A DNA stretch of 64,000 nucleotides from Candidatus Micrarchaeota archaeon (GCA_041694885.1 JBGFRX010000005.1:5291-69290), one strand, 5' to 3'; positions 5,874 to 40,633 are shown, numbered from the stretch's first letter. Notes: generated by a model from the letters alone, not told the origin. Made by a program: numbers and translations.

Positions 5874-5974
5874 GCTGCTATTTGCCTGAAAACCATTAAA
5901 AAACAGCGGTGCAGGAGAGGAGGGTTAGATTCGCCAGTCCGTCAGCGAACCAAAAACTGAAAAATTTTCAGTGA

Positions 5975-11083: not shown

Positions 11084-11152
11084 CATCCATCTATTTTTAC
11101 ACTCTGGCACACGTTTAAAAACTTTAAGTGTAAATGGAATACAGGTGGGAAT

Positions 11153-14412: not shown

Positions 14413-14469
14413 GTCAACTACCTCTGATTTGCAAAAGTTCAAGGTTTTCCCATTTCAGCGATTTCGCGA

Positions 14470-14572
14470 TTTAATTTCCGTCCTTTTCGCGTGAAGTCGC
14501 GAATAGCGAGGCCTGCATGATGGGACAAACAACCATCTGCTGACGTGAGGTGGAGGAATTATAAACTCTTAC
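14470..14572 (+). repeat. Copy A of a roughly 103-bp promoter-containing module. Its inverted partner is at 40531-40633, with about 7 mismatches.
   Basis: 'atttaatttccgtccttttcgcgtgaagtcgcgaatagcgaggcctgcatgatgggacaaacaaccatctgctgacgtgaggtggaggaattataaactctta' aligns to the reverse complement of 40531-40633. It ends in the TATA-like 'attataaa' 30-70 nt upstream of the DsrE-like gene. Confidence 0.85.
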
Positions 14573-14593: not shown

Positions 14594-14944
14594 TTGACAG
14601 CAAATTGGATTATGATTTGTTCAGGTGTTATGATGAAATTGACAGTAATAATAAGCTCGGGCGACTCGGAGAATGCATGGAACGCATTCCGTTTTGCGAA
14701 CCTGGCGCTTGGGAAAGGAGACGAGGTGAAGGTCTTCCTCCTAAACAGCGGGGTGGAGTGCCTCGAGAATAAAGGGAAATACGAAACAAAAACCCTATCG
14801 GAACAATTCGAGGAAAAGGGAGGTAAAATCCTCGCGTGCAGAACGTGCGCGAAAAGCAGGAATATGGGCAATGTCTGTGAAATCTCGAATATGGAAACGT
14901 TATATAATCTGATACGCGAAAGCGAGAGAACAGCTTATTTCTGA
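14594..14944 (+). CDS. DsrE/DsrF-like (YchN-fold) small sulfur-relay-type protein. The probable true start is MKLTVII at 14633.
   Basis: About 103-aa core 'MKLTVIISSGDSENAWNAFRFANLALGKGDEVKVFLLNSGV...ILACRTC' matches the DsrE/DsrF family architecture. Confidence 0.5.
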   Translation: MTANWIMICSGVMMKLTVIISSGDSENAWNAFRFANLALGKGDEVKVFLLNSGVECLENKGKYETKTLSEQFEEKGGKILACRTCAKSRNMGNVCEISNMETLYNLIRESERTAYF

Positions 14945-21482: not shown

Positions 21483-24400
21483 TATCAGAGCCTCGATTTC
21501 CGAAACTATCTCCTTTTCCTCATCGCTGAGCGCATCGCTCTTCTTCTTCCATTTCTCCAGTTCCGCTTTTGTGATGTAAACGAGGAGCGCATCGCCTTCC
21601 CTCACATCGCTGCCAAGAATTATCTCATCAACTGAAATGGCGACCTGCGTGCCCTTCTTTGCCTCCGCAAGCGATTCTTTCTCCTTCTGTATCGTTTTAA
21701 CTTCGCCCAAGACCCTTCCATCCAGGTTCATGAGGCGCACATGTGGCCTTAATTTTCCGGCAAGAACTTCCACCCCGAAAATAGCCGGCTTACTCACGCG
21801 GAAGAAACAATTGGGTAGCGCCCTTATGCGGCAGGGCCAGGACATCTTCTCAAACACCTGCTTTTTTTCCCTTTCCCTTTCCTCCGCCTTCCATTCCTCG
21901 TACCTGTCCAGAAGCTGATAGACAATATTGCTGTAGATTATCTGCGCTCCTCCTTCGTCCCCTGCTGTCTTTGCATCAGGAAGCACCTGCACATTGAACG
22001 CGAGCACAGCGCCTAAATATTTGTCCTGCGCAGCAACCGTCGCAGCGAGCAGCGCGTCTCCTTTGGTTACATTGCCAACATTCGCCGCCTTCACCGGTAC
22101 GTTCGCATCCCTGAGGAGCTTGACTATCGCCTCCACGCTGCCCAAGCTATCCGCCTTCACCACCACTCCCAAACCGGCGCTCTCGAAAATTATCCCTTTC
22201 ATGTGCGCCTCTATCTCCTTCCTGTCTTTTTCATAGTTCTTTGCGACAATGAGAGGGGAGCCGCTCACCGCATCCTCGAGTCCGGGAGCTGCGATTTTTA
22301 CTCCTGCAGCAGCCACGAGCCGCTCCGCCTTCCTGAACTTCTCCTTTGCGCCTCTTATGTTCGGCTCGAGCAGCGCGCGTATTTTGGTTTTCTTCACTCC
22401 TGCTCTGGAGAGGAACACAATTTCGTCGCCCTCCACGAGTACCCCGTCGTAAATTATGACGTCCACAGTTGGCCCGAGCCCTTTCTCCTCTTTGACCTCC
22501 ATCACGCTGCCTTTTGCAGGGCTTTCGGGATCAACGTGCAGCTCCTTTTCCAGAAATTTCTGGCTGAGCCCTGCTATAAGAAGAAGAAGCTCTGCAAGCC
22601 CCTCGCCCGTCTTCGCGCTCACAGGCACTATCCCGACTTGCTTCGTGAAATTCTTTACCCTGTCAAAACGTTCGGAATCGAAGCCGTATTCGGAAAGTTT
22701 CCCCATCAACCCGTATATCCTTTCATCAACATTGTTTTGCGTACTCTCTGACTGCTTTGCGAGCGATTCGAGGAACGACTCCGTTGCCTGCGATTTCCAT
22801 CTGTCAACCAGATCGACCTTGTTCGCGGCGATGATGAAGGGCGTTTTCGCGTTTTTCAGTATCCTTATGCTCTCTATGGTTTGGGGCTGGAATCCCTGTG
22901 CAATATCCACTACGACTATCGCCATGTCTGCTATGCTTCCCCCCCTCTCACGCAGATTCGTGAACGCCTCGTGGCCCGGCGTGTCTATGAAAAGTATGCC
23001 CGGAACCATGAGCTTTATTTTCATCCTTTCCGCTACTGGTTTGGAAACCGCCTCTATATTCTCGCGCGCCACATAGCTCGCGCCTATCATCTGGGTTATC
23101 CCACCTGCCTCCTTCCCCGCCACACCGGTGCCCCGAACTGCATCGAGAAGGCTGGTGTTGTGCGCGAAAATCCGGTCTGCTACGAAATTGTGGTGCTCCG
23201 GAACCGTGAAATCGTAGACGTAGTCTTTGGATTCGGCATGAACAATTTCCGAAATGCGCACTGCCTGCACGTCCGAGCCGGAGCAGAAACGCGAAATGTT
23301 TTGGAGGCGCGCACGAACGAGTGCCCGGCACTTTCCGGAGTTCGCGCAAAAGTCCGCACCCGTAGCCGTTAGCGAGAATTGCCCATTTTTCATTTTCACG
23401 AGCCCATCCGAATAGAACGACCGGAGTTGATTCACCGTCCAGACCCAGGGAAGCCCGCTCTCTGCCGCAGCTTCTTTTGAGGATAGCGGCCGGCATTTTA
23501 GGGATTTGAGCAGCCGGATTTTCTTTTTCAGAGCGTTGCGGTATTCGGCCGAGGACAAAAGGCGCGTGAGATTTTCCTTAAATGAAGACAGGTATGCCCT
23601 CGAAACAAACGGATATTCCTCGTACTTGCCCTGATAAGGTATTCCGACCTCCATTTTCGCAAGACCAGGCAGATTTCGGATTTCTCTGATGCTGGCGCCG
23701 CTTATGGGGCTAATGTCGCTGTTCCTGTTCGTGCGGGCCTTTTTTAGGAAACGCTCCAGTCTCGCCCCTTTCTTCAGGGACCTTATGGGAATCGCCCTGC
23801 GGAATTTTTCAATGTCCTCGATTCCGCTTATTCTTAGGCTGTAATATCCATTCTTGGAGTAATAAGCAGCCCTTATGCCGAACCTCAGGAGCGCCAGGGA
23901 AAGGTCCTCAACAAACAGTCTGCTCGCGCTCGTAATCTCGAGCGCGCCCTGGTTGCTCGCATAGCCGTCGGTGTCGAATACGCCGGCTATGAAATTCGCG
24001 AGCAGGGAGTCGTCACCTGTCTTCACAAGGTCCGGAATTCGGATGGTCCGGCTTTTTTGCCTTGCGGGAAAATCGAAAATCTCGTTGAGCATGCGGTTGA
24101 GCGTCCTGCCTCCCCTGTGGATGGCCGCTGTGACTGTCCGCTCGCGCCTGACCACGACCTGTACTCCGAACGCTTTCTTCATCGCGTCCGCATACGCAGA
24201 CAGTATCTCCGGGTCGTTCTTGCACAGCTTCGCGACGCCGCCCACGCCGTCGCCGAAAAGCAGCCCGAGCGCATACCCAAGTTCATCCCGCAATTGCGGC
24301 ACAGGGAGCCAGGGGCCCGTGTGCCCTGCCCTCCACTTGTGGGTGGAATTCTTCAATTCGGTCATTTTCCTCACTGAAGCACCACGGGTGCGCGGAAGCC

Positions 24401-25271
24401 AGTGTTGTTCACCAATAGGCATGGCTTCAGTTGTCCATGAGAACGGCGCTCCGTTCTGGGGGTACAAAGAACGATGCGTCGTTCTTTGGCATGGGGGAGC
24501 GCACCCTACGCTATCGGGATGTGGCTTCCGCCTAAAGCCATCAATATCGGAAGCCACGGGCTCCTTCAGCTTTGCTGAAGGGATTGCGGACGAAGTCCGC
24601 AGGATTAGCCCGTGGTGCTTCACAAACCCGCACCCGAGGACGCCTCCGGCTGTCCTTAGCTCGGCCATCTGGAATCTTCCGTTGCTCAAGCAGTCCCGGA
24701 ATCCTGCTGGAAAATCCGCTGGATTGGACAGATAGAGGCCGTGCATTCCGGAAGTGAAATCCTCATCATCAATCCTCGCGACGAACCCTTCCATCGCGGA
24801 CAGCCTTTCAAAGAACCGCTTTTCTGCACGGGCTCTCTGAGTTCGGTTTTTTGTGTACCTCGGAGTGAGCACGAACTCTCCTTCCTTCAGAAAACGGCCT
24901 TCCTTCTCGCTGATTCCGCCTGCTTCATTCACTACGAAGAATTTGTGCTCCGGGGTCGCCTTTATCGCGCTGCCGTCGGAGAGCATTACTGACAGGAGGC
25001 TCTGTGTCTGCCTTTTCCAGACGTGGGAAACTCCTGCCTCGACAATCTCGCATTCCTTTGAGAAAGAGTAGAGTTTTGCATTTTCATTTGAGATGTCTGT
25101 AACCCAGCCGTCACCGCACCACTCGCCTTTTTTGTCTGAAGTCAGCATCTCGTAGAGCTCGTCGGCCCTCATAATCCGGCCATCCGGCAACGGTATGAGA
25201 GTGTCTCCGCTGATGCACTTGCCGTGATCGACGTGCCCAAGCACTGCTATTATTGGAGATCTGATAAGCAT
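21468..25271 (-). CDS. infB: Translation initiation factor aIF5B (IF2 homologue), interrupted by a large intein at the P-loop
   Basis: Exteins read 'AVLGHVDHGK|...|TSLLDAVRGT' then G-domain motifs 'DTPGHEAF' and 'NKVD', domain II and the C-terminal domain. Total 1267 aa versus about 590 aa expected. Confidence 0.9.
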   Translation of the reverse strand: MLIRSPIIAVLGHVDHGKCISGDTLIPLPDGRIMRADELYEMLTSDKKGEWCGDGWVTDISNENAKLYSFSKECEIVEAGVSHVWKRQTQSLLSVMLSDGSAIKATPEHKFFVVNEAGGISEKEGRFLKEGEFVLTPRYTKNRTQRARAEKRFFERLSAMEGFVARIDDEDFTSGMHGLYLSNPADFPAGFRDCLSNGRFQMAELRTAGGVLGCGFVKHHGLILRTSSAIPSAKLKEPVASDIDGFRRKPHPDSVGCAPPCQRTTHRSLYPQNGAPFSWTTEAMPIGEQHWLPRTRGASVRKMTELKNSTHKWRAGHTGPWLPVPQLRDELGYALGLLFGDGVGGVAKLCKNDPEILSAYADAMKKAFGVQVVVRRERTVTAAIHRGGRTLNRMLNEIFDFPARQKSRTIRIPDLVKTGDDSLLANFIAGVFDTDGYASNQGALEITSASRLFVEDLSLALLRFGIRAAYYSKNGYYSLRISGIEDIEKFRRAIPIRSLKKGARLERFLKKARTNRNSDISPISGASIREIRNLPGLAKMEVGIPYQGKYEEYPFVSRAYLSSFKENLTRLLSSAEYRNALKKKIRLLKSLKCRPLSSKEAAAESGLPWVWTVNQLRSFYSDGLVKMKNGQFSLTATGADFCANSGKCRALVRARLQNISRFCSGSDVQAVRISEIVHAESKDYVYDFTVPEHHNFVADRIFAHNTSLLDAVRGTGVAGKEAGGITQMIGASYVARENIEAVSKPVAERMKIKLMVPGILFIDTPGHEAFTNLRERGGSIADMAIVVVDIAQGFQPQTIESIRILKNAKTPFIIAANKVDLVDRWKSQATESFLESLAKQSESTQNNVDERIYGLMGKLSEYGFDSERFDRVKNFTKQVGIVPVSAKTGEGLAELLLLIAGLSQKFLEKELHVDPESPAKGSVMEVKEEKGLGPTVDVIIYDGVLVEGDEIVFLSRAGVKKTKIRALLEPNIRGAKEKFRKAERLVAAAGVKIAAPGLEDAVSGSPLIVAKNYEKDRKEIEAHMKGIIFESAGLGVVVKADSLGSVEAIVKLLRDANVPVKAANVGNVTKGDALLAATVAAQDKYLGAVLAFNVQVLPDAKTAGDEGGAQIIYSNIVYQLLDRYEEWKAEEREREKKQVFEKMSWPCRIRALPNCFFRVSKPAIFGVEVLAGKLRPHVRLMNLDGRVLGEVKTIQKEKESLAEAKKGTQVAISVDEIILGSDVREGDALLVYITKAELEKWKKKSDALSDEEKEIVSEIEALISVVF
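23157..25217 (-). mobile_element. 687-aa intein with LAGLIDADG homing-endonuclease domain, inserted after GHVDHGK of aIF5B
   Basis: Starts 'CISGDTLI' and ends 'FAHN' before extein Thr. LAGLIDADG blocks 'LGLLFGDGVGG' and 'FIAGVFDTDGYAS'. Confidence 0.85.
24374..24621. other. Highly structured, compositionally aberrant in-frame insert inside the intein linker, bracketed by a perfect 14-bp long-range inverted repeat
   Basis: 'tgaagcaccacggg' (24374-24387) is the exact reverse complement of 'cccgtggtgcttca' (24608-24621). Internal hairpins: gaagcca...tggcttc, gaacgg-cgct-ccgttc, tggcttccg...cggaagcca, cttcagc-tttg-gctgaag, gcggac-gaa-gtccgc. The encoded peptide segment is P/H/R/W/T-rich low complexity. 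Confidence 0.5.
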
Positions 25272-26475: not shown

Positions 26476-27306
26476 ATGAATTCTGGAAAATTTATCTTCG
26501 CGATACTATCTTTCATCTTTCTCTCGGCATTTGTATTGGTTGCCGGCTGCGCGCAACAGCAGCCCGCGGGCGCGAACGAAAGCGCGCCCCTCAGGTTCAA
26601 AGACAGCGCGCTCGTGGACTACATACTTATCGTGGAAATACCCGATAGCGCAGCAAACGGAAGCAGGAAAGCGGTATACGATACGTCCATCGGGGCAATT
26701 GCTAGAGAGAACGGCATCTACAATGAAAAAAGGGCATACGGGCCGCTTGCAGTAGAAATGCAGAACGACAACGGCCTTCTTCCAGGATTCACCCGTGCGC
26801 TTGTCGGGATGAAGGAAGGCGAAAACAAGACGTTCACACTGAACCCGGAAGAGGGCTATGGCATTTACGATTCCAGCAAAGTATTCTCAATAAGCCGGTT
26901 CTATAACATGAGCAGGTACGAGGACATTCCGCTCGCGTATTTCGAGATGAGAAACCTTTCCAGTGCGATCGGCACAAACCTTTCGGGCAAGTTGGGCGTT
27001 GCGCAGGTCGTAAACTCCACGAACGAAACAGTTACGCTGAAATATTTCCCTGCAGAGAACACCACGTTCGTGTTCAACGGGCTTCCACAAAGAGTCGTTT
27101 TCTTTGACAACGACAGCATACTGATCGAGATAACCGTGCAGCAGGGAACGAAATACATAACTGAATCACCTTCAGGGGATAAGTTCAGCGTTATTGCAAC
27201 AGCGATGAACGAAACCGGCATAATGTTCGACGCGAACAACCCCCTCGCAGGCAAGGAGCTCACATTCACGGTGTTCGTGAGGAAAATAGGGAAAGCGCAG
27301 GAGTGA
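26476..27306 (+). CDS. Secreted or lipid-anchored FKBP-type peptidyl-prolyl cis-trans isomerase with C-terminal extension
   Basis: Signal/lipobox 'LVAGCAQQ'; FKBP core 'GLLPGFTRALVGMKEGENKTFTLNPEEGYG'. Confidence 0.55.
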   Translation: MNSGKFIFAILSFIFLSAFVLVAGCAQQQPAGANESAPLRFKDSALVDYILIVEIPDSAANGSRKAVYDTSIGAIARENGIYNEKRAYGPLAVEMQNDNGLLPGFTRALVGMKEGENKTFTLNPEEGYGIYDSSKVFSISRFYNMSRYEDIPLAYFEMRNLSSAIGTNLSGKLGVAQVVNSTNETVTLKYFPAENTTFVFNGLPQRVVFFDNDSILIEITVQQGTKYITESPSGDKFSVIATAMNETGIMFDANNPLAGKELTFTVFVRKIGKAQE

Positions 27307-30300
27307 GTGGTGGAAGAATGACGGACAAGATAAGGAAAAGGGACGGAAGTGTAGTTGCGTTCGACGCTGGCAAGATAAAAGAGGCAATATGGAAGGCAGT
27401 GCAGGCGGTCGGCGGAAAGGACATGGAGGAATCGGACAGGACCGCTGAATTCGCGGTTAAGCTCCTGAACGAGAAATTCGCCAAAGAAATACCTTCAGTA
27501 GAGGATATACAGGACATCGTGGAAAAGGCGCTCATAGAGCGCGGGCATGCGACCACTGCGAAGGCGTACATACTCTACAGGCACAAAAAAAGCGTTGAAC
27601 GGGAAGTTAAGGGCATAATGGGCGTGAAGGATGACCTCAAGCTCTCGCTCAATTCCATACAGGTCCTGGAGCGCCGCTACCTACTCAAGGACGATTCAGG
27701 AAAGATAATGGAAACACCTGGCGGGATGTTCAGACGGGTCGCGAAGTTCATCGCCTCAGGGGAAAAGGCGTTTGGAGGGGACGAAGAGACGGTGAAGGAC
27801 TTCGAGGAGGCGTTTTACGAGGCGATGATAAAGCTGGAATTCATACCCAATTCCCCGACACTGATGAACGCAGGAACAGGGCTCGGCCAGCTCTCAGCAT
27901 GCTTCGTTCTCGGCGTCACGGACGACTTGGACGACATATTCGAGACAGTGAAGAACACTGCATTGATACACAAGAGCGGTGGAGGCACCGGCTTTTCCTT
28001 CTCTTATCTGCGCCCCAAGGGCGACTTCGTGAAAAGCACTGCCGGCGTGGCGAGCGGACCAATTTCGTTCATGACCATCTTCGACGTGGCGACTAACGTG
28101 GTAAAGCAGGGTGGCAAGCGCAGAGGCGCGAACATGGGCGTGATGGAAATATGGCATCCTGACATCGAAGAGTTCATCACAGTGAAGCAGACGCCGGGCG
28201 TGCTCGAGAACTTCAACATCAGCGTGGGTGTGGACAACAGGTTCATGAAGGCGCTCGAAGAGGATAGCGAATATGACCTCATAAACCCAAGGACCGGCCA
28301 GCAGGTGAGAAAGGTGAAGGCAAAGGGCCTGTTCAACCACATCGCCTATTCCGCGTGGAAGTCAGCAGAGCCAGGCATTCTTTTCATGGACACTATAAAC
28401 AATGCCAATCCAACTCCAAAAGAAAGGATCGTTGCGACTAATCCTTGCATTTCAGGAGACACGCTTGTGTGCACGAACGAAGGGCTCGTAGAGGCGTCCA
28501 AGGTACACAATCCTCACCACGTAATCGGCTCCGACGGCAAATACCACCCTGTGCGCTGGGCTGGCCAGACCGGGGAAAAGGAGCTTTTCCTCGTGAAGAC
28601 GAATGCGGGCTACGAAGCCAAGGCAACTGCGGAGCACAAATTCCTCACTGAAGGCGGATGGAAAGAGGTGCGCGAACTAACTTCCGAAGACCGGCTTGTG
28701 CTCCAGAAACAAGGAAAATTCGGAGCAATGCGCATTGACAGGGAGATGGCGCTCGCGCTCGGCTGGCTTGTTAGCTGCAACCATATGTCCAAAGACGCAC
28801 AGGACGTGATATTTCATTTCGGGGAAGAGGAGAAGGCGGAGCTCCTCCCTGTGTTCAGGGAATATTTCGACCGCATAAACGGAGTGAAAGTGAAGCCGCA
28901 GAAAAGCAGGACAGGAACGCGGCTTAAATATTCGTCCAAAATAGCTGCGAAATTCCGTGAATTCGGGTTCATGCACCTCAAAGCGCGCGAGAAGGAAGTG
29001 CCTTCAGCTGTCTTTTCAATGAACGAGGAATCAGTGGGGAATTTCCTTTCCGCATTGTTCGGCGCAAGCGGCTCTGTGCAAAGCAACAGCGAAAAGGAAG
29101 TAAGCATACGCCTCTCATCCAGCTCCATCAAGCTGCTCAAGCAGGTGCAGGTGCTTCTCCTTCAGTTCGGCATCGTTTCCAGGGTGTACGAAAGAAGGCG
29201 GGGCGGGCATGCGAAAATCCTTCCTGATTCGAAAAGACAAAGCAAGGAGTATTCATGCAAGGCCCAGCACGAACTGATGATAAACAGGGCGAGCATGTTC
29301 CTGTTCATGAACAAGGTTGGTTTTGCGGTTTCATCCAAAAACGAAAAATTCGCGGAGCTTAAGCCCAAAAAGGCATATTCGGATGATATGGATAGTTCGG
29401 TTGCCTCTGTCACGAGCGCAGGATTCGCGCCTGTATACGACCTCACCGAGCCGCAAACGCATTCATTTTCCGCGAATGGCCTCATAGTGCATAATTGCGG
29501 CGAAGTCCCGATGCCCAATTATGAGTCATGCAACCTCGCGAGCATAAACCTCGCGAAATTCGTGGAAATCGACTGGAGCAGGAGCGACTGGAAAAGGAAG
29601 ATCAACTGGAAGCGCCTGCGCTACATAGTCCGGCTCGGCGTGCAGTTCCTCGACAACGTCATCGAGCTGAACAAATACCCGATTCCGAAAATAAAGGAGA
29701 AGACGCTCTACAACAGGCGCATAGGGCTCGGCGTGATGGGCTTCGCGAAGATGCTCTTTAAGATGGGGATAAAGTACGATTCCGACGAGGCGTTTAGGAT
29801 AGGGGAAGAAGTGATGAAATTCATAACCGAGGAGGCGAGAAAGATGAGCCATGAGCTCGGAAGGGCGCGCGGCTCCTTCCCCGGCTTCGCGGACTCCGTG
29901 TGGGCGAAGAAATACGATGGGATGCGCAATGCGACCGTGACCTCGATAGCTCCAACAGGGACCATTTCGATGATTGCGGACACTTCAAGCGGTATAGAGC
30001 CGGTGTTCTCGCTCGCGTACGTGAAGATAGTGATGGATGGCACCCGGCTCTATTATTCAGACGACACGTTCGAGCACGTGCTCAAGGTAAGGGGGCTGTA
30101 CTCGCCAGAGCTGATGCAAAAGGTAATAGAAAGCGGGAGCATCGCAGGGATGGAGGAAATCCCGAAGGAAGTGACGGAAATATTCCGGGTCGCGTACGAC
30201 GTGCGGCCAGAGGCGCACGTGCGCATGCAGGCCGCGTTCCAGAAATACACGGACCTGGCGGTGAGCAAGACCATAAACCTGCCTCCGGACGCCACAGTCG

Positions 30301-30470
30301 AGGACGTGCAGAGCGCGTACATGCTTGCATGGAGAACCGGGTGCAAGGGAATTACCGTTTACAGGGAAGGAAGCAGGGGCGAGGGCGTGCTCGCGAAGGT
30401 CAAGCCAGTTCCAAAGGCAGCGCCTGCTCCTGAAAATCCGAACCCTGTGCAGGAGAGGAACGGACAATAG
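27303..30470 (+). CDS. nrdJ: Adenosylcobalamin-dependent (class II) ribonucleotide reductase with N-terminal ATP cone, interrupted by an intein at the catalytic NPCGE motif
   Basis: ATP cone 'KIRKRDGSVVAFDAGKIKEAIWKA'. Exteins give 'ATNP|CGEVPMP' (NPCGE active site). C-terminal 'TINLPPDATVEDVQSAYMLAWRTGCKGITVYREGSR'. Confidence 0.85.
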   Translation: MSGGRMTDKIRKRDGSVVAFDAGKIKEAIWKAVQAVGGKDMEESDRTAEFAVKLLNEKFAKEIPSVEDIQDIVEKALIERGHATTAKAYILYRHKKSVEREVKGIMGVKDDLKLSLNSIQVLERRYLLKDDSGKIMETPGGMFRRVAKFIASGEKAFGGDEETVKDFEEAFYEAMIKLEFIPNSPTLMNAGTGLGQLSACFVLGVTDDLDDIFETVKNTALIHKSGGGTGFSFSYLRPKGDFVKSTAGVASGPISFMTIFDVATNVVKQGGKRRGANMGVMEIWHPDIEEFITVKQTPGVLENFNISVGVDNRFMKALEEDSEYDLINPRTGQQVRKVKAKGLFNHIAYSAWKSAEPGILFMDTINNANPTPKERIVATNPCISGDTLVCTNEGLVEASKVHNPHHVIGSDGKYHPVRWAGQTGEKELFLVKTNAGYEAKATAEHKFLTEGGWKEVRELTSEDRLVLQKQGKFGAMRIDREMALALGWLVSCNHMSKDAQDVIFHFGEEEKAELLPVFREYFDRINGVKVKPQKSRTGTRLKYSSKIAAKFREFGFMHLKAREKEVPSAVFSMNEESVGNFLSALFGASGSVQSNSEKEVSIRLSSSSIKLLKQVQVLLLQFGIVSRVYERRRGGHAKILPDSKRQSKEYSCKAQHELMINRASMFLFMNKVGFAVSSKNEKFAELKPKKAYSDDMDSSVASVTSAGFAPVYDLTEPQTHSFSANGLIVHNCGEVPMPNYESCNLASINLAKFVEIDWSRSDWKRKINWKRLRYIVRLGVQFLDNVIELNKYPIPKIKEKTLYNRRIGLGVMGFAKMLFKMGIKYDSDEAFRIGEEVMKFITEEARKMSHELGRARGSFPGFADSVWAKKYDGMRNATVTSIAPTGTISMIADTSSGIEPVFSLAYVKIVMDGTRLYYSDDTFEHVLKVRGLYSPELMQKVIESGSIAGMEEIPKEVTEIFRVAYDVRPEAHVRMQAAFQKYTDLAVSKTINLPPDATVEDVQSAYMLAWRTGCKGITVYREGSRGEGVLAKVKPVPKAAPAPENPNPVQERNGQ
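28446..29495 (+). mobile_element. 350-aa intein with degenerate LAGLIDADG blocks, inserted at the RNR catalytic Cys
   Basis: Starts 'CISGDTLV' and ends 'IVHN' followed by the +1 Cys of NPCGE. Blocks 'LALGWLVSCNH' and 'GNFLSALFGASGSV'. Confidence 0.8.
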
Positions 30471-33597: not shown

Positions 33598-34188
33598 GTG
33601 TTTATGTGTTGGGCGGCAAATAAATTAATAATTGTTCTATGCGAATGCCGGATGAGCAATATGGAAGTGCATGCATTCAAGGAGCAGCCAATCTGGCCGC
33701 CTTTTCCTGCGCGCCGCACCCATATCCCCATGAAGAAAGTACTTGATGTGAGGAACGCAAAAAATGCAAGGAATGCGAGGCCGCGTATAGTGGACCGCAC
33801 CGAGACGCTGGAACTCGTGCACTGCTTCGCATGCAACGGGCACATCAGAAAAAGGCATGGCGCAAAGCCCAAGACACGGGTGCTGTTCAGGATCTGGAAC
33901 AACGCCATTGAAAAGGTGAAGTACGTGCGCCCGAGATATTACTGCCCGAACTGCAAAGCAGACGTTTTGCCGGAAATCCGCGATGCCCTTCCAAACATGA
34001 AATTCGACTTCGAGATAATAGGGCTCATCCTTGCTTTGAATGCGGACCGTGGCATGGGGTGCAGGTGCATAAGCAAGGCATTTTCGTCCCTATTCGGCAT
34101 CGGCATCTCACCTGCAAGCGTGAGCAACATCCTCAAGAAGATGAAGGCATTTTCCAGCTGCCGCGGCTTAGAAAGGAAAAGAAAATAA
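33598..34188 (+). pseudogene. ISL3-family transposase remnant: N-terminal zinc-finger plus HTH only, with the DDE domain missing. The real coding part is probably about 33730-34188.
   Basis: 'HCFACNGH...(25 aa)...VRPRYYCPNCKADVLPE' matches the zf-ISL3 pattern C-x2-C...RRY-x-C-x2-C-x4-L/F-x-E, followed by the HTH 'GISPASVSNILKKM'. The ORF stops after about 150 aa, where a roughly 300-aa DDE domain would follow. Confidence 0.5.
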
Positions 34189-34290
34189 GAAGCTCTTATC
34201 TTTGCAAACCACGCCTGAGAGTTCAACAACCCGGAAAATTTTAAACACTCTGAAAGAAACCCTTATAAACTCACTTGATAAAATAGAGGC

Positions 34291-35127
34291 ATGGTTTTCT
34301 ATCCAGCCATTAGAGAGCTTTTCAACCCGGGCTTGCAGGAAGTGACAGGGCTTCTCATCCATCTTGTGGTCCTTTTCGCGAGCATAATGCTCTCCTTTTA
34401 CGGACTGCGCAACTTCGCGCGCTACACAGTTACACTATCCAAAAATACTCATCTTCTCGGAATCGCTTTTGCGCTCATAACTTTCATACCCATAGGGGAC
34501 ATGTTCGAGCACCTCGAGCTGTTTCCAGGCACAAGTTTCTGGCACCACATGCACATCTTCACCAATGTCGCGGCATTCTATTTCATCTACCGCTTCGTGC
34601 AGCTCATAGATGCGAAAGAGCGCGAAGATATGGGAAAAAGCGCAGCACTGCTCGTCGCCATTACAGTGTTCGGAATAGTTTTTTCGGAAAGCGAGGAAAT
34701 GTTCAAGGCAGGACTCTTTGGTACTCTCCCGTACCATTACGTCATAGGTACAACCTACATCGCCCTGTTTATCGCCATATTCTGGCTTTCATGGAAGTTC
34801 CTGGATCAGATAAGCAATCTCGGAAAAATGGAGAGCGCGTTTTCGCTGAAGAGCTTCGCGATTTCCATGATACCGATAATTTCAGCATGCCTGCTCGCAA
34901 CCGGCGCCACCTCGCTTACCGCGGAGTTCATAAGGGACATCATCCCCAGCATTAAGAGCCATCCGTTTGTTCTGCTCATGGTCGCGTCGGTGAACGTGTT
35001 CTACCTGTCGCTCGCCATGACCCTCGTCGGCTTCGGCTACATGGCGGAAAAAATACACGGCTTCTACGCGCCCATAGAAAAATTCGTGGCAAGGAAAAAG
35101 ACAGAGACCCGCTACTTCAAAAAATAA
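34291..35127 (+). CDS. 7-TM membrane protein, paralogue A of an unassigned family with a conserved F-E-H...F-W-H-x-M-H motif
   Basis: 'DMFEHLELFPGTSFWHHMHIF', 'FSLKSF', 'FYAPIEKF' align with 'ELFEHTNMPPAGHFWHYMHLA', 'FSLKTF', 'FYTPIARF' of the ORF at 39598-40506. Confidence 0.5.
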   Translation: MVFYPAIRELFNPGLQEVTGLLIHLVVLFASIMLSFYGLRNFARYTVTLSKNTHLLGIAFALITFIPIGDMFEHLELFPGTSFWHHMHIFTNVAAFYFIYRFVQLIDAKEREDMGKSAALLVAITVFGIVFSESEEMFKAGLFGTLPYHYVIGTTYIALFIAIFWLSWKFLDQISNLGKMESAFSLKSFAISMIPIISACLLATGATSLTAEFIRDIIPSIKSHPFVLLMVASVNVFYLSLAMTLVGFGYMAEKIHGFYAPIEKFVARKKTETRYFKK

Positions 35128-35136
35128 CAAAAGGGG

Positions 35137-36384
35137 CTATAATATGTTCCCTATCATTTCAAATGCCCGCTTTATTATCTCAGGTGGCGGAAGGAACGTG
35201 GTGCGGAAATACGTTCCATCAGTTTGCTTTCCAAACCCGGAGCCAGGAACAAGAACAACTCCTCCTTTGTCCGTTGCCTTCAGGGCAGCCCTTATGAAGT
35301 CCCAGTCGCGCTTTCCTTCCCATTTTCCGCTCTTTATCTTCATGAACGCGTAGAAAGCGCCGTTTGGCTCAGGATAGGAAAGAGGAAGCCCAGAGGTCGC
35401 TTTTTCCAGCGCCTTCTTCCTTTCGATGAGCGTTTTTTTCACGTCCACAAGATAAGGGTCAACATCCTTCACGAGCGTTGCCGCAACGCCTTCCTGGAAC
35501 TCCCAGTTCAGCGCAAGGCGCCTGTTGCATTCCTTCTGCACCGCCTCCTTTATCATCCCCCATTCGTCCTTTCCGCCTTTTCCCATGGAATGGAAAGCGA
35601 GCCAGCCCACCCTTGCACCAGGGTAGAAGTAAATCTTCGAGACCGAACTTCCATAGATGTATGGAATTTTCCCATCTGCGATTTTCCTGAAATCTACTGG
35701 CTCGCCGAACGTGAGCCGGTCATAAGCGCCGTCGTAGAAGACCGGCACTTCGTGCCTTGCGCACACTTCGACCGCAGCCCTGAGGTTGCCTTCCGAATAG
35801 ACCGAGCCAAGAGGGTTGTTAGGGTTTATTATGACCGCGAATTTCGCGCCCTGGATTTTCTTTTCCAAATCACCTATATCTATCTGCCCGTTCTCATCAT
35901 GCCTGTAAAAAGCGGAATTCGCGCCGTTTAGGTTCGCCTCGGTTATGTAAATCGAGTATGTGGGATTAGGAAGCACAGCCTTGTCCCCTGGGTTGACCAT
36001 CGTGGAAAAGAGGAACTTTATCCCTTCCGTGAGCCCGTGCATCACGAAAACGTCGTCAGGAGTACAATTTCCGCCCTCAATTTCCGCTGCCTTTTTCCTT
36101 AGCGATTCAGTGCCCTGCGAGGGCGGATAGCCCTTGAGTTTTTTCCCGAGCGCTGCTTTCACGTTTTCCGCGATCGCGTCAGTCAGCCCCATTTTCAGGT
36201 CGTAGTTGGATTTCGCAGGGTCGCCTATGTTTAGCCAGATCATCTGCCTTCCCTGCTTCTGGAGCTGCACCGCTTCGATCACTACATCGCGTATCGCGTA
36301 TTCCACAAATTCCATTCGTTTGGATGGCCCGAATGCCACATTATCGCTTTTTCGTCCAGTGTCCATAATACCCCCTCTGTTCAT
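35137..36384 (-). CDS. Class I/II PLP-dependent aminotransferase (aspartate/alanine aminotransferase-like)
   Basis: Aminotran_1_2 fold; 'NPNNPLGSVY' and 'SVSKIY' (PLP Lys) motifs. Confidence 0.8.
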   Translation of the reverse strand: MNRGGIMDTGRKSDNVAFGPSKRMEFVEYAIRDVVIEAVQLQKQGRQMIWLNIGDPAKSNYDLKMGLTDAIAENVKAALGKKLKGYPPSQGTESLRKKAAEIEGGNCTPDDVFVMHGLTEGIKFLFSTMVNPGDKAVLPNPTYSIYITEANLNGANSAFYRHDENGQIDIGDLEKKIQGAKFAVIINPNNPLGSVYSEGNLRAAVEVCARHEVPVFYDGAYDRLTFGEPVDFRKIADGKIPYIYGSSVSKIYFYPGARVGWLAFHSMGKGGKDEWGMIKEAVQKECNRRLALNWEFQEGVAATLVKDVDPYLVDVKKTLIERKKALEKATSGLPLSYPEPNGAFYAFMKIKSGKWEGKRDWDFIRAALKATDKGGVVLVPGSGFGKQTDGTYFRTTFLPPPEIIKRAFEMIGNIL

Positions 36385-36672
36385 ATGAAGAAATTATCCG
36401 GAGTATGTTTAAATAATGTGTGATGGCGCAGACCTTGCGCATGCTTTACTGACATTGTGTGGCGATGCAGTCAAACGCCGTGGATTGGCCGCAAAAAGGT
36501 TGCGCATGCAACGATGTTTGACGGCATCGGGCGAATGCCACCTGCTTCAGCTGGTTGATGAAACTACTAACCATTGCATTTTTTCTGGTGACGCCTTTGA
36601 GCGAGTGCTGTTGTTTGGCGACGGCACGCAGTCCCTCGACTTCATGAGTCGTGGGTTCGCCACACGGTGTCA

Positions 36673-38079
36673 CTAACGATGCTCCCTTGCATGGCTGTCA
36701 ATTATTTTTGCAACGTTGACAGGATGCATTGGGGGCCTGACCATAGCAACCCTTGCTCTTGTTTTCTCGCCAAAAGGTTCACTTGGAGTTATACATACTC
36801 CTTTTTCATCCACCAACGCTGCGGTCAGCGCATTGCTGTTTACGCCCTTTACATATTCGAGGTAGTGGTAAAATGGGATTTCAGGCTTGCCGAATGGATA
36901 TTCAAGAACTTTGCCATAGCGTTTTTGAAGCCTCTCGATTTCGGTTCCGAACTGCATGCTCCAGTTCGCGAACGTTTTGAAATTCGGCGCAAGTTCCTTC
37001 ATAATAGTTTCGTACTCCTCGTAGTACGGCAATGAAGCATACTGCGTGAGCGTGTTTTCTCCAAGGTACATTGCAAAGGCGGTTCCCAGTGCATCGTGCA
37101 ACGCGTCGTTCACCAGTTTTGCGGTTTTCAATGCGTCCGGTATGTATGGTGTGAAGAAGCCGCCGTGGAAACCAGTTCCCAGCGTTTTGTCTATTCCACT
37201 CATGAAAAGCAGGGGCACGCCGGTTTCCTCGGAGATTTTGAAAAAGTCGATCCTCTGTGCAGAAGGTATGTAATCCCTGTAAATGTCATCAATAATAAGG
37301 AGCACTGCATTTCCAGTTTCCAGCATGTGAAGCTGCAAGCCATCGGCAATCTGTCTGGCCGTTTTCGCCTTTAGTATAGTGCCGGTTGGATTATCTCCAG
37401 ATATAACAACAACAGCGCGCGTATGCTCATCCAGTTTGGAAAGCACTGATTTTACGTCAGGTGAGCCGTTGTCCTCCCCACCTCTTATTCTTTCAGCACG
37501 CTTCACCTCCACACCATACAGAATCAAAATGCCTGCCCATGGTGCATAGACGGGGTTCACACACACAACGTTGCTCTTCAGATTTGATACAAGAAGCCCG
37601 GTGAACTGCAATCCTTCGGTCACGCCATTGACGCCATAAATATTTTTTGGATCGAGACCATATTGTGCCGCAATCGCCCTGCGTAATCGCAGCATTCCCT
37701 GCGAGTTCGTATAAACTATACGAGCAACTTCGCCATTTATCTCCTTTCCATTCAAGACATCGTGAAGAACACTTGTTACTGAGGGTGCACCCTCTATCGA
37801 CTGGTCAATGTGCGTGTTTCCAATGTCGTGGCGCAGTACACCATGCTTTACGCCATCATTGATCCATTCAGTGCCACTGTCCGCGTGTGCCTGCCCTTTC
37901 TTCACTGAGTCGCTTCCGCGCAGCGTGCACTTCGCCGCTTTCTCGAACCTAGAGATATCCAGATTCAACGTGAGCACGCCCGCTTCGCCAAGCTTCTTCA
38001 CTTCTGCGAGCCGTTCCTTGGAACTAAGCTTCAAAAATTGTTCTTTGTTCATAGTTCGTTGCGCCAAATTCATAAACAA
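36673..38079 (-). CDS. Class I/II PLP-dependent aminotransferase paralogue with an N-terminal extension of about 70 aa
   Basis: 'ISGDNPTGTIL' and 'SGIDKTLGTGF' fold signatures; extra N-terminal helical region of unknown function. Confidence 0.6.
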   Translation of the reverse strand: MFMNLAQRTMNKEQFLKLSSKERLAEVKKLGEAGVLTLNLDISRFEKAAKCTLRGSDSVKKGQAHADSGTEWINDGVKHGVLRHDIGNTHIDQSIEGAPSVTSVLHDVLNGKEINGEVARIVYTNSQGMLRLRRAIAAQYGLDPKNIYGVNGVTEGLQFTGLLVSNLKSNVVCVNPVYAPWAGILILYGVEVKRAERIRGGEDNGSPDVKSVLSKLDEHTRAVVVISGDNPTGTILKAKTARQIADGLQLHMLETGNAVLLIIDDIYRDYIPSAQRIDFFKISEETGVPLLFMSGIDKTLGTGFHGGFFTPYIPDALKTAKLVNDALHDALGTAFAMYLGENTLTQYASLPYYEEYETIMKELAPNFKTFANWSMQFGTEIERLQKRYGKVLEYPFGKPEIPFYHYLEYVKGVNSNALTAALVDEKGVCITPSEPFGEKTRARVAMVRPPMHPVNVAKIIDSHAREHR

Positions 38080-38129
38080 TCCCCAATTTTATTCTTTGTG
38101 GTAGTATATTTAAATATATTGGTTTAGTT

Positions 38130-39410
38130 CTATGGCTTCACCCTCTGCCTGTCCCTTGGGAACATCACCGCATCGCGTATGTTCCCGAGTTCACAGAGTG
38201 CCATGGTCATCCTGTCCAAGCCCATGCTCCAGCCAGCGTGCGGAGGAGCACCGTACTTGAATGCGTCTATGTACGACTTGAAGCCCGCGGGCTCCATTCC
38301 CTTTGCCGAAATTTGTTTTTCGAGCAAATCCGGAATGTGAATCCGCTGCGCTCCTGAAGCGACCTCCATCCCGCGATAAATCAAATCATAAGCCCTGCAC
38401 ATCTTAGGATTGTCTTCGTAAGGCATAGAGTAGAAAGCCCGAACAGCAGTAGGGTAATCCTTCACAATAACGACATCGCTCTTCGCGGTTTCGCAGATTT
38501 TCACCTCCTGCTCCCTGGAAAAATCCTCTCCCCACCTTATCCTTTCTCCGTCTGCATTAAGCGCTTTCACCAGATCGGAATAAGCGTATACAGCTGCCTT
38601 TTCCGGCACTTCGAGTTTCGCGTTCAGGGTTTCGAGTTCAGCCCTGTTCCTTTCATTCACGCTGTTCAGCATTTGCAGGAACACTTCTCCCAGGACAGCA
38701 ATCGCGTCTTCATCATCAGCAAAAGCCATCTCTATGTCCATCTGGTGTATTTCGTTTATGTGGTAGGGACCTTCGTGTTTCTCTGCCCTGAAAACAGGAG
38801 TGGTCATGAACACACGCTCCATTCCTCCAATTACTGCCAATTGCTTGTAGAACTGCGGGCTCTGCGCTAAAAACGCCGGTTTATCAAAATAATCGATTTT
38901 GAAGAGCTGCGCCCCCCCTTCGGTGGAAGAGCCGACTATGCACGCAGGATTTATCTCCTCGAAATCCAGCGAAAGGAGCGCCTCGCGGAACGCACTTTCC
39001 AGAGTTGCCCTTATGTCGAATATCGCCCTTGTTTTCTCCCTTCGCAGATCCAGTGAACGGTTGTCCAGCCGCACGTTCAGGTTTGGCTCTTTCTTTTGCA
39101 CAGGGTAAAAAGGGAGTGGGCTGTAAATTTTTCCAACGACCTTAATGCTCTCCGCTTCCAATTCCACTCCGTTTGGAGCCCTCGGCTCCTTCCTGACAGT
39201 TCCTTTCACCTGGATTGCGCTTTCCTTTTCTATTTTTTCTTCAGGTTTCGAGGAAAGTTTCACCTGTATCTTTCCGCTTCCGTCTCGCAGGGTGAGAAAT
39301 GTAAGCGTGCCCAATTCCCTTATATTGTGCACCCAACCCGCGAGAACTGCAGGTTTTCCGTCAAAGATTCCGGATTCGGAGAGCACAGATGCTATGCTCC
39401 GTTCCTTCAT
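38130..39410 (-). CDS. aspS: Aspartyl-tRNA synthetase, archaeal type. It is probably non-discriminating given the gatCAB genes 5 kb away.
   Basis: N-terminal OB fold 'VLAGWVHNIRELGTLTFLTLRDGSG'. Class II motifs 'FRAE', 'GAPPHAGWSMGLDR'. Confidence 0.9.
   Translation of the reverse strand: MKERSIASVLSESGIFDGKPAVLAGWVHNIRELGTLTFLTLRDGSGKIQVKLSSKPEEKIEKESAIQVKGTVRKEPRAPNGVELEAESIKVVGKIYSPLPFYPVQKKEPNLNVRLDNRSLDLRREKTRAIFDIRATLESAFREALLSLDFEEINPACIVGSSTEGGAQLFKIDYFDKPAFLAQSPQFYKQLAVIGGMERVFMTTPVFRAEKHEGPYHINEIHQMDIEMAFADDEDAIAVLGEVFLQMLNSVNERNRAELETLNAKLEVPEKAAVYAYSDLVKALNADGERIRWGEDFSREQEVKICETAKSDVVIVKDYPTAVRAFYSMPYEDNPKMCRAYDLIYRGMEVASGAQRIHIPDLLEKQISAKGMEPAGFKSYIDAFKYGAPPHAGWSMGLDRMTMALCELGNIRDAVMFPRDRQRVKP
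39333..39380. repeat. Copy 1 of a perfect 48-bp direct repeat. It lies inside aspS codons 14-29; its partner is at 39559-39606.
   Basis: 'atattgtgcacccaacccgcgagaactgcaggttttccgtcaaagatt' is identical at both positions. Confidence 0.9.
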
Positions 39411-39558
39411 GGAAGTGGAAGAAGCGAGCAGCTCGCGGCTGCGCGTCCGTTTTTGTGCAGAATCAGATCCTTTGAAAATGGTTTCACCTGTGCTGCTGTT
39501 ACAGTTCGGCGTATAGTTGGACGTAACCGCTTAAAAATCTACCGCGAAACTTTTTAAG

Positions 39559-39606
39559 ATATTGTGCACCCAACCCGCGAGAACTGCAGGTTTTCCGTCA
39601 AAGATT
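39559..39606. repeat. Copy 2 of the 48-bp direct repeat. It overlaps the last three codons and the stop of the 7-TM paralogue B gene.
   Basis: Identical 48-mer. In this copy the 'tca' within 'gtcaaagatt' is read on the minus strand as the TGA stop of the membrane-protein gene, which uses a different frame from aspS. Confidence 0.9.
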
Positions 39607-40506
39607 TTTCAAATTCATCCAACCTGAAAAGGAGCGTTCTGTGACTTTCCCTGAATGAGCTGATGAGGCCTTTTTCTGCCTTACGACCCTCGTACTCCTG
39701 TTGGTGCTGAGGAAGCGTGCTATAGGCGTGTAGAACGCCTCGGCACGCATGGTCGCGAACACGAAGAACATTATTGTAGTGGTAAGCACGACGTACAGCA
39801 TGTTCTGGAAGATGCGCGCCAGCGTGGTTATCTCGTTGTGCCCGAACAACACGAGCGCTGTTCCCATTATATCTATGTTTATGGTGAGCAGGAACAGTAT
39901 ACCGATGAGCGAGTAGAGCGCAGAAGTGAGTATGAACGTCTTCAGCGAGAACGTGTTCCTGGTGACTTCATTCATATTCGAGATGTTCTTCCATGTTTTG
40001 AGCAATATAACCAGTGTCAGGAGCGAAAGTACGAGGAACAGCAGCGCGTCAAAATTTACCTCTATTATCAATTCGATATGATACAGCGCATAGAGCGGAA
40101 CAAACATCGCAAGGAGCACGAGAACGGTTTCGCGCACCACATGCTCTGCGCGCTCGGGCGTTTTGCTCTCCCATGTGGAGGTGAAAAGATATACAAAATA
40201 AATCGCCGCGATTCCGGACGCGAGGTGCATGTAATGCCAGAAATGCCCTGCCGGAGGCATGTTGGTGTGCTCGAACAGCTCGAATATGCCTATGCTGCTT
40301 ATGAAAGCGAACACCATTGCGAGCCGCATCCAGCGCACGAATAGTTTGCTGTAATGCATTATCACGCTCCTCAGGCCCAAAATACCTGCAATTATCAGGA
40401 ATATTATGAACACGATGTGCATGTCGAACGCGCTTATTACGAATGAATCAGTATCCTCCAGATCCGGAAACAAGGGGATTATGCCCTGAGTCTTCCCGGT
40501 CGCCAT
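39598..40506 (-). CDS. 7-TM membrane protein, paralogue B of the F-E-H...F-W-H-x-M-H family
   Basis: See paralogue A. Its own promoter lies inside the 103-bp module (40531-40633), with TATA about 32-39 nt upstream of the ATG. Confidence 0.5.
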   Translation of the reverse strand: MATGKTQGIIPLFPDLEDTDSFVISAFDMHIVFIIFLIIAGILGLRSVIMHYSKLFVRWMRLAMVFAFISSIGIFELFEHTNMPPAGHFWHYMHLASGIAAIYFVYLFTSTWESKTPERAEHVVRETVLVLLAMFVPLYALYHIELIIEVNFDALLFLVLSLLTLVILLKTWKNISNMNEVTRNTFSLKTFILTSALYSLIGILFLLTINIDIMGTALVLFGHNEITTLARIFQNMLYVVLTTTIMFFVFATMRAEAFYTPIARFLSTNRSTRVVRQKKASSAHSGKVTERSFSGWMNLKNL

Positions 40507-40530: not shown

Positions 40531-40633
40531 TAAGAGTTTATAATTCTTCCACCTCACGTCAGCAGATGGTTGTTTGTCCCACCATGCAGGCCTCGCTATT
40601 CGCCACTTCACATGAAAAAGACGAAAATTAAAT
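40531..40633 (-). repeat. Copy B (inverted) of the roughly 103-bp promoter-containing module
   Basis: The reverse complement aligns to 14470-14572 with about 7 mismatches; the 56-nt core 'gcgaatagcgaggcctgcatg(a/g)tgggacaaacaaccatctgctgacgtgaggtgga' has a single mismatch. Confidence 0.85.

Follow-up and report, generated by a model that had tools for sequence, protein, structure and literature searches.

Two anciently diverged members of a rare, undescribed seven-helix membrane protein family in a Micrarchaeota genome

The locus

The window considered here is a stretch of 64,000 nucleotides from a Candidatus Micrarchaeota archaeon (GCA_041694885.1 JBGFRX010000005.1:5291-69290), and the subject of this report is a pair of genes within it, termed copy A and copy B, which encode membrane proteins with seven transmembrane (7-TM) helices. 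The two genes are found on opposite strands and flank a block that holds two aminotransferase genes and aspS (Table 1), an arrangement with which the Pfam matches of the block genes agree. A preliminary description of the window, made from the sequence alone, had presented the two open reading frames (ORFs) as paralogues of a family that it could not place, and had suggested that conserved residues at the end of a membrane helix form a metal- or cofactor-binding site. As detailed below, A and B are anciently diverged members of an undescribed and very rare family of seven-helix membrane proteins. Relatives of the two proteins are referred to by the handles of their loci (such as L001) or of the proteins themselves (such as P0010) where they have to be told apart.

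Table 1. Features of the window, with positions counted from its first nucleotide
Feature	Position	Strand	Remarks
Copy A	34291..35127	+	278 amino acids; 7-TM; A-type, Micrarchaeota branch; ORF at exactly this position
Copy B	39598..40506	-	302 amino acids; 7-TM paralogue, B-type; ORF at exactly this position
A core motif D70-x-x-E73-H74...P79...F83-W84-H85-H86-x-H88	34498..34554	+	end of TM2, loop and start of TM3; predicted outer face
B core motif E76-x-x-E79-H80...P85...F89-W90-H91-Y92-x-H94	40225..40281	-	from alignments
A F184-S185-L186-K187	34840..34851	+	predicted cytoplasmic TM5-TM6 loop; Micrarchaeota branch only
A F258-Y-A-P-I-E-K-F265	35062..35085	+	predicted cytoplasmic helical extension of TM7; Micrarchaeota branch only
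Context block between the copies	35137..39410	-	4.3 kb; two aminotransferases and an AspRS-type synthetase; Pfam matches
Aminotransferase, class I/II	35137..36384	-
Second aminotransferase, class I/II	36673..38079	-	468 amino acids
AspRS-type class IIb synthetase (aspS)	38130..39410	-
48-bp repeat, source copy	39322..39369		within the aspS 5' coding region, roughly codons 15-30
48-bp repeat, second copy	39559..39606		overlaps the 3' end of B; 100% identical direct repeat
103-nt module upstream of B	40531..40633	-	inverted repeat I1; 93% identical to its twin
103-nt module, twin	14469..14571	+	upstream of DsrE-family ORF 14594-14944
IS66-family transposase N-terminal fragment	33598..34188	+	between gatC and A; zinc-ribbon/helix-turn-helix, no catalytic domain

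Two paralogous proteins of seven helices

The paralogy of A and B is upheld by a BLASTP alignment that covers essentially the full length of both proteins (about 276 columns) with an E-value of 3e-16, 24% identity and 46% positives, and the three motif pairs that had been quoted for the two copies are found in register within it. As the identity is only 24%, the duplication from which the two copies stem is taken to be old. An estimate of about seven membrane helices for each copy is borne out by AlphaFold2 models. The model of A has a predicted local distance difference test score (pLDDT) of 85.8 and a predicted template modelling score (pTM) of 0.85, and consists of seven long helices that span residues 18-45, 53-74, 81-105, 114-139, 148-177, 186-217 and 225-277. 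The model of B, with a pLDDT of 84.0 and a pTM of 0.81, has seven equivalent helices, and only its residues 291-302 fall below a pLDDT of 50. In the models, the helices are packed in the manner of the seven-helix bundle of G-protein-coupled receptors (GPCRs). A hidden Markov model search of all six-frame ORFs brought to light no further copy of the family within the window.

The search for a known family

Neither A nor B has a significant match in Pfam-A 2025 or NCBIfam 20.0, and none reaches a curated gathering score; the best sub-threshold matches are to DctQ (E=0.053), which at 13.8 bits falls short of its cutoff of 28.3, and to FvfA (E=0.042). When 27 relatives were scanned, none reached threshold in Pfam or NCBIfam, no Pfam family matched more than two of them, and the Pfam families of the Mrp antiporter did not match any member scanned. 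No sequence in the PDB matches the family profile, and in the literature that was searched no description of the 7-TM family was found. We thus found no curated family, solved structure or paper that describes these proteins, and the family remains as unassigned as when it was first noticed. The Pfam entries 7TMR-DISM_7TM, HisKA_7TM and 5TMR-LYT, which stand for the prokaryotic 7-TM sensor input modules, are absent among the matches listed for the 27 members (E<=1, 25 most-matched families), and were not reported for the kinase-fused relatives described below, namely P0042 (E<=0.01), L020 and L021 (both E<=0.001). Membership of the CREST/ceramidase group was also considered, and was rejected because the combination of a Pfam match and similarity to AdipoR/ACER3 was not found.

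Structural comparison of the models with Foldseek gave TM-scores of about 0.5 and a best E-value of 3e-3, which is weak agreement on fold class; the lists contain no microbial rhodopsin, CREST hydrolase or transporter. The result is to be read as one of fold class only and not of homology.

Rarity and position of the close branch

The family is sparsely represented in sequence collections. When 5.8 billion clusters were searched by a word index, A had 8 relatives and B had 2, with the window's own sequences counted; when 1.84 billion representatives were searched exhaustively with an HMMER profile, 25 proteins were returned with E<=1e-3. Close-branch members were met only in contigs of Micrarchaeota type, and just two of their sources carry a label, namely a 'Candidatus Micrarchaeota archaeon' metagenome-assembled genome (L003/L006) and an 'uncultured archaeon' (L002). 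The orthologues of A in L001, L002 and L003 are 40-51% identical to it, and those of B are P0010, at 59% identity, and P0023/L011, at 37%.

In L001, L002 and L003 alike, the gatC-proximal slot holds the A-type gene, which is transcribed divergently from gatC-gatA-gatB on one side and convergently with the aminotransferase-aspS genes on the other, a class V FBPase gene following beyond these. The B-type gene adjoins the FBPase gene in L011 too. This conservation in other genomes indicates that both positions are old and that the split between A and B is ancient, with no recent rearrangement. The preliminary description had regarded features next to each copy as rearrangement scars, and these cannot be read as evidence of recent arrival when the A slot is common to L001-L003, a B-type gene is similarly placed in L011 and the copies share just a quarter or so of their residues. 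Copy number in the family varies: L001 has three copies, L003 has two, and L011 has a full copy alongside a truncated one. The latter (L011 1344-1739) corresponds to B residues 131-261, to which it is 35% identical, and lies between the full copy and the FBPase gene. In L001, a further multi-TM ORF of 271 amino acids is found between the family copies (5481-6296, minus strand); it was rejected as a member, since it is not detectably related and has no Pfam match.

Orthologous family members are 37-51% identical, whereas the flanking GatA, GatB, AspRS and FBPase proteins are 75-90% identical. Measured in this way, the close branch is evolving much faster than its neighbors.

The block between the copies has orthologues in L002 and L003. 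Its second aminotransferase has no orthologue in L002 and a weak match of 26% in L003, and may represent a lineage-specific insertion into an otherwise conserved block. With respect to their neighbors, the family genes are transcribed divergently or convergently and are not co-oriented with them. The bracketing of the aminotransferase/aspS block, to which attention had been drawn at the outset, is therefore real as a conserved position, but no functional tie beyond position was found. Given this lack of co-orientation, and given that the distant branch of the family does not have the gatCAB/aspS context, no role in Asp/Asn-tRNA metabolism is proposed.

A distant branch and the residues common to both

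The weakest matches of the profile search (P0026 and P0028-30) were used as seeds for a further search, which yielded 15 proteins from metagenome-assembled genomes labelled Hydrothermarchaeales, 'Euryarchaeota' and 'Methanobacteriota', and from unlabelled metagenomes. Alignment of the two branches by hhalign gave a probability of 98.9% and an E-value of 2.7e-17 over 217 columns, spanning TM1 to TM7. With the distant-branch profile A6, B is matched at 4e-15 and A at only 8e-5, which makes B the window copy that is closer to the distant branch.

Residues were counted in the full-length members, comprising 23 proteins of the close branch and 15 of the distant branch, and are given here in the numbering of A. 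All 15 distant-branch proteins have H24, D/E70, E73, H74, H85 and H88, and the pair formed by Q234 and N/D235 is found in 14/15 and 13/15 of them, respectively. In the close branch, the same residues are present in 17/23 (H24), 21/23 (D/E70), 16/23 (E73), 20/23 (H74), 18/23 (H85), 16/23 (H88), 12/23 (Q234) and 16/23 (N/D235) proteins. From these counts, the family-wide core consists of H24, D/E70, E73, H74, H85, H88 and Q234-N/D235. In the numbering of B, H80 and P85 are invariant in the alignments, and E79, H91 and H94 are conserved at 90% or more. The conserved residues that had first been singled out were a Glu-His pair and the motif W-H-x-M-H, and of these the Glu-His pair and a His-x-x-His element do belong to the core of the family. 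The remainder of the motif is less general, as W84 is found throughout the close branch (23/23) but is mostly replaced by F in the distant branch (11/15), M87 is not conserved and position 86 is either H or Y.

Each branch also has conserved residues of its own. The F-S-L-K motif, in which S185 is present in 23/23 proteins, and the F-Y-x-P-I motif are restricted to the close branch. The distant branch has H-H-G-x-x-E before TM1, P-W-D...E between TM4 and TM5, G-R in TM6 and H-x-x-Q-D-x-x-H in TM7.

Topology and a candidate site

Some relatives of A and B carry a C-terminal HisKA/HATPase_c region after the 7-TM module (P0042/L010, L020 and L021), and Lys and Arg are enriched in the C-terminal tail and in the even-numbered loops. 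From the cytoplasmic kinase core, this distribution of charge and the odd number of helices, we infer a topology in which the N-terminus is outside and the C-terminus inside. Combined with the helix boundaries of the models, such a topology would place the conserved motif at the outer ends of the helices. With depth measured from the outer surface, H24 would lie at about 6 residues, D70, E73 and H74 at 0-4, H85 and H88 at 4-7 and N235 at about 10, so that the conserved polar core would be housed in the outer third of the membrane. The i/i+3/i+4 spacing brings D70, E73 and H74 onto one face of TM2, and H85 and H88 onto one face of TM3, a geometry that would suit a single cation site facing outward. 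It is hence a reasonable inference from the models that the Glu-His and His-x-x-His elements at the ends of TM2 and TM3 form a metal-, proton- or cofactor-binding site.

Kinase fusions and gene neighborhoods of relatives

In the three fused proteins, the E-values for HATPase_c range from 2e-26 to 2e-25, and HisKA, for which the cutoff is 26.9 bits, scores 25.4, 30.5 and 39.8 bits. All three have intact N, G1, F and G2 boxes. The proteins are 43-60% identical to each other, and a GAF-SpoIIE phosphatase is a neighbor of the P0042 type. A thrS gene is found downstream of all three fused genes, with infC also present in L020 and L021, and the idea that the fusions arose as independent events was rejected on account of this common context.

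Stand-alone members of the distant branch are found beside antiporter genes. In L012, L016 and L018, the 7-TM gene is the first gene upstream of an Mrp cluster and is on the same strand; the cluster is complete in each case (MnhE-F-G-MbhD-MbhE-MnhB-C-D), and the gap between it and the 7-TM gene is narrowest in L012 (22 bp), followed by L016 (42 bp) and L018 (about 120 bp). The 7-TM members of these three loci share 35-41% identity. In L019, an orthologue of the L016 gene instead abuts a CPA2 antiporter gene (Na_H_Exchanger, E=3e-62), and the genes upstream, a DsrE2-family gene and a response regulator, match those in L016. The presence of two types of antiporter beside orthologous genes argues for a functional link to Na+/H+ exchange rather than for a structural subunit of Mrp. 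A phmmer search of the window with the L012 and L016 subunits found no Mrp homologue.

In addition to the response regulator upstream of its 7-TM gene, L016 encodes a histidine kinase of a minimal, two-helix type (10797-11768, minus strand), the H-box of which is intact, directly beyond the Mrp cluster. Minimal kinases of this type usually depend on an accessory membrane sensor, and the two-component layout of L016 is as expected if a separate membrane protein does the sensing. The 7-TM gene of L022 forms a divergent pair with the gene of an ArsR-type HTH_5 regulator, and no consistent signal emerges from the contexts of L007, L009, L013 and L017. The window itself shows none of these associations.

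As a side observation, a DrsE_2/DsrE-family gene and a single-domain response regulator form a divergent pair in L016 (3688-4666) and again in L019 (952-1925), in each case 1-2 kb upstream of the 7-TM gene. The recurrence of DsrE, which is also met in the window through the 103-nt module described later, is a weak hint, and the DsrE protein of the window and the DsrE2 type of L016 and L019 are of different subfamilies with no similarity detectable by phmmer.

A receptor-like reading and its alternatives

We tentatively favor the reading that the proteins form a new receptor-like 7-TM family with an outward His/Glu site for a cation or protons, which signals via the extension of TM7. The outer cluster, as the defining feature of these proteins, would draw on four helices, with H24 contributed by TM1, [D/E]70-x-x-E73-H74 by the end of TM2, H85-x-x-H88 by the beginning of TM3 and Q234-[N/D]235 by TM7. 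It would bind an extracellular cation, whether a divalent metal or protons titrating the histidines, and its occupancy would shift the packing of TM2, TM3 and TM7, with the change relayed to the cytoplasmic face. The protein would act in this manner as a receptor or sensor and not as a transporter or enzyme. In Micrarchaeota, the output would be mediated by the F-S-L-K loop and by the long helical extension of TM7 with its F-Y-x-P-I-x-x-F motif, acting on a partner, and in one bacterial lineage the 7-TM module would be wired directly to a DHp/ATPase kinase-like core. As the genes of several Euryarchaeota head or abut Na+/H+ antiporter genes, the quantity sensed is suggested to be related to cation or pH homeostasis. 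The wider proposal, of a prokaryotic receptor family with a GPCR-type fold that reads extracellular metal or pH and is kinase-wired in bacteria, antiporter-linked in Euryarchaeota and coupled to some other partner in Micrarchaeota, must be regarded as doubtful.

A number of observations weigh against a receptor of this type. In six to eight close-branch paralogues (including P0014-17, P0024 and P0025), the His/Glu set is lost while F-S-L-K and F-Y-x-P-I are kept, which implies that the outer site is dispensable in some members. The kinase fusion is a single event kept in one bacterial lineage, and the H-boxes of its three products (TYQLDGPL, AAELNNPL and ATDLNNPL) have Y, A or T in place of the acceptor His, with no conserved His nearby, so that their sequences mark them as kinase-like signaling proteins and not as canonical autokinases or sensor kinases. 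The antiporter linkage is a property of the distant branch only; Mrp and CPA2 genes are both absent from the vicinity of A and B, and no two-component genes were found beside A, beside B or in the related Micrarchaeota loci.

The outer cluster could also be pictured as the entry or selectivity site of a small permease or channel for protons or cations, such as a divalent metal, in which case the kinase-fused relatives would be 'transceptors'. Clusters of His and Glu on adjacent helices are typical of metal-transporter sites, and the proximity of Mrp and CPA2 antiporters would suit such a protein, as would the divergent ArsR-type regulator of L022, since this is a common arrangement for metal-homeostasis genes. 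Among the approximately 40 best-conserved positions that were tabulated, though, the polar residues fall in the outer third or in cytoplasmic loops and none is mid-membrane, leaving no apparent conserved polar path across the bilayer. An internal repeat was not noticed in the alignments or models either, albeit without a formal test for one, and we deem a permease unlikely. An improbable explanation is that of a metal-dependent hydrolase or different enzyme that is embedded in the membrane and has a lipid or envelope component at the outer leaflet as its substrate, by analogy with the 7-TM zinc hydrolases of the CREST group. The richer set of outer polar residues in the distant branch does resemble an active site, and 1 of the 27 members has a weak match to the Pfam Ceramidase family (PF05875, E=0.0013), but this match is single, sub-threshold and not common to the other members. 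The CREST proteins also have the opposite topology, with their zinc site on the side of the cytoplasm, a kinase-like output would be an unusual fusion partner for a hydrolase, and the residues concerned are lost in several paralogues.

If the cluster serves a structural purpose instead, the proteins could be fast-evolving components of the envelope or host interface of episymbiotic Micrarchaeota that have no specific link to their neighbors. The low identity of the orthologues in comparison with the flanking proteins, the recurrence of tandem duplication (in L001, L003 and, with its fragment, L011) and the loss of the motif from some copies would all be understandable on such terms. The strict retention of His and Glu across branches that are only about 15% identical is, in contrast, hard to explain structurally, and both the kinase fusions and the antiporter linkage would be left without an explanation, which makes this account quite improbable. 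It is very improbable that the histidines of TM1-TM3 bind heme or another redox cofactor in a small membrane redox protein. Conserved His residues are indeed present on three adjacent helices, and redox genes are found near several members, including HdrA/MvhD in L017, a multiheme cytochrome in L010, a Tll0287-like protein in L013 and a molybdopterin oxidoreductase with a thioredoxin in L022. No such neighbor recurs from one locus to the next, however, and the histidines are situated at the extreme ends of helices beside acidic residues, which fits ions better than a buried heme, with no second conserved pair of His deeper in the membrane.

Should the receptor-like reading hold, the proteins could be among the few devices by which the reduced, episymbiotic Micrarchaeota sense their environment or their hosts. 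Environmental sensing is little understood in the DPANN archaea, to which Micrarchaeota belong and whose genomes are tiny. A dedicated, duplicated and fast-evolving surface receptor would provide a handle on how these organisms perceive their surroundings or hosts. The family would also add a compact input module, with a GPCR-like fold and a defined, mutable His/Glu site, to the membrane sensors of prokaryotes, and it suggests a regulatory or sensing partner for the Mrp and CPA2 antiporters of some Euryarchaeota. Its rarity, at a few dozen clusters worldwide, restricts its general reach.

Comparison with known systems

The likeness of the family to the GPCRs is one of fold class only. Against eukaryotic GPCRs of classes A, B2/adhesion, C and F, the identity is just 5-10% and no Foldseek E-value is better than that given above. 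The family does not have the D/E-R-Y motif of GPCRs, and the Q-N-P-L-Y sequence of some members, which has N-P-x-Y spacing, is located in the outer half of TM7, whereas the NPxxY motif of GPCRs is found at the cytoplasmic end of this helix. Homology through DRY/NPxxY was consequently rejected because of the wrong spacing and helix position. Archaea are not known to have G proteins.

There is a greater resemblance in architecture to the 7-TM sensor modules of prokaryotes, in that in both a polytopic module is found N-terminal to HisKA/HATPase_c in some members and stands alone in others. The new family differs in its own His/Glu motif and in the absence of the acceptor His from the fused kinase cores, and on the strength of the motif it is held to be separate from the known modules. 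The reading of extracellular pH or metals through His and Glu is familiar from the proton-sensing GPCRs and from the ExxE sites of PmrB. The 7-TM family, with its clustered and predicted extracellular His and acidic residues, and with E-x-x-E-H in the distant branch, is similar in this respect, although it has no sequence relationship to either. With the CREST hydrolases, which include alkaline ceramidase and the PAQR/AdipoR proteins, the family has in common its seven helices and its conserved His and acidic residues.

Repeats and other features of the window

The 48-bp repeat that had been described at the 3' end of B as derived from aspS is an exact direct repeat. Its second copy lies 149 bp upstream of the aspS start and supplies the last two codons and the stop codon of B. 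Relative to its orthologue P0010, B has a C-terminal tail extended by about 25 residues, which the model shows as disordered, and the 3' end of the gene therefore looks to have been remodelled.

The 103-nt module was correctly reported as common to B and a DsrE-like gene, the two copies being inverted with respect to one another, and ORF 14594-14944 encodes a true DsrE-family protein (PF02635, E=5e-13). At B, the module ends in a TATA-like TTATAAA element, the last base of which is 30 nt, and the first about 37 nt, before the ATG. In the twin, the element precedes the first possible start of the DsrE-like gene (TTG at 14594) by about 26 nt and its likely ATG by about 65 nt. From this placement, the module reads as a duplicated upstream or promoter segment, and the suggestion that it drives B is plausible given the TATA-like element near the ATG. 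A structured RNA or riboswitch was considered for the module and rejected. Rfam has no match to it, the folding z-scores of the sense copies (-0.8 and -2.6) point to no consistent fold, and differences between the copies break a small hairpin without compensation. The TTATAAACTC core is also found 21 nt before the ATG of A (34263-34272), outside any repeat, for which reason the idea that the TATA-like core is a special shared signal was set aside. The TTATAAACTC core is probably the local consensus of the archaeal TATA box.

The ORF beside A had been called an ISL3 transposase remnant, which is an identification that does not hold. It instead matches the N-terminal part of an IS66-type transposase, namely positions 9-133 of the 387 in NF033517, with an E-value of 2e-9 and a score of 37 bits that is far below the cutoff of 180, and no ISL3 model, be it for the zinc-finger, helix-turn-helix or DDE region, matches it in Pfam or NCBIfam, with nothing found by tblastn against plasmids. 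A 41%-identical IS66-type N-terminal fragment adjoins a family copy in L001 (7301-7750). The fragments beside family copies in these two genomes could represent a domesticated DNA-binding protein and not decaying remnants.

Two short imperfect repeats lie in coding regions, one of 32 nt (40815-40846/44897-44928, inverted, 81%) and the other of 41 nt (45433-45473/61565-61605, direct, 80%), and both are probably chance matches or shared protein motifs. The ribonucleotide reductase ORF (27303-30470, plus strand) encodes 1055 amino acids as against 693-704 in the orthologues of L002 and L003. Its residues 383-731 have no counterpart in these orthologues, to which the remainder aligns at 84-86%, and this segment is probably an intein. 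Similarly, ORF 21468-25271 (minus strand) encodes a translation-factor-like protein of 1267 amino acids whose N-terminus contains GHVDHGK-CISGDTLI, and from this sequence it looks like an aIF5B/IF2-type GTPase with an intein in its P-loop.

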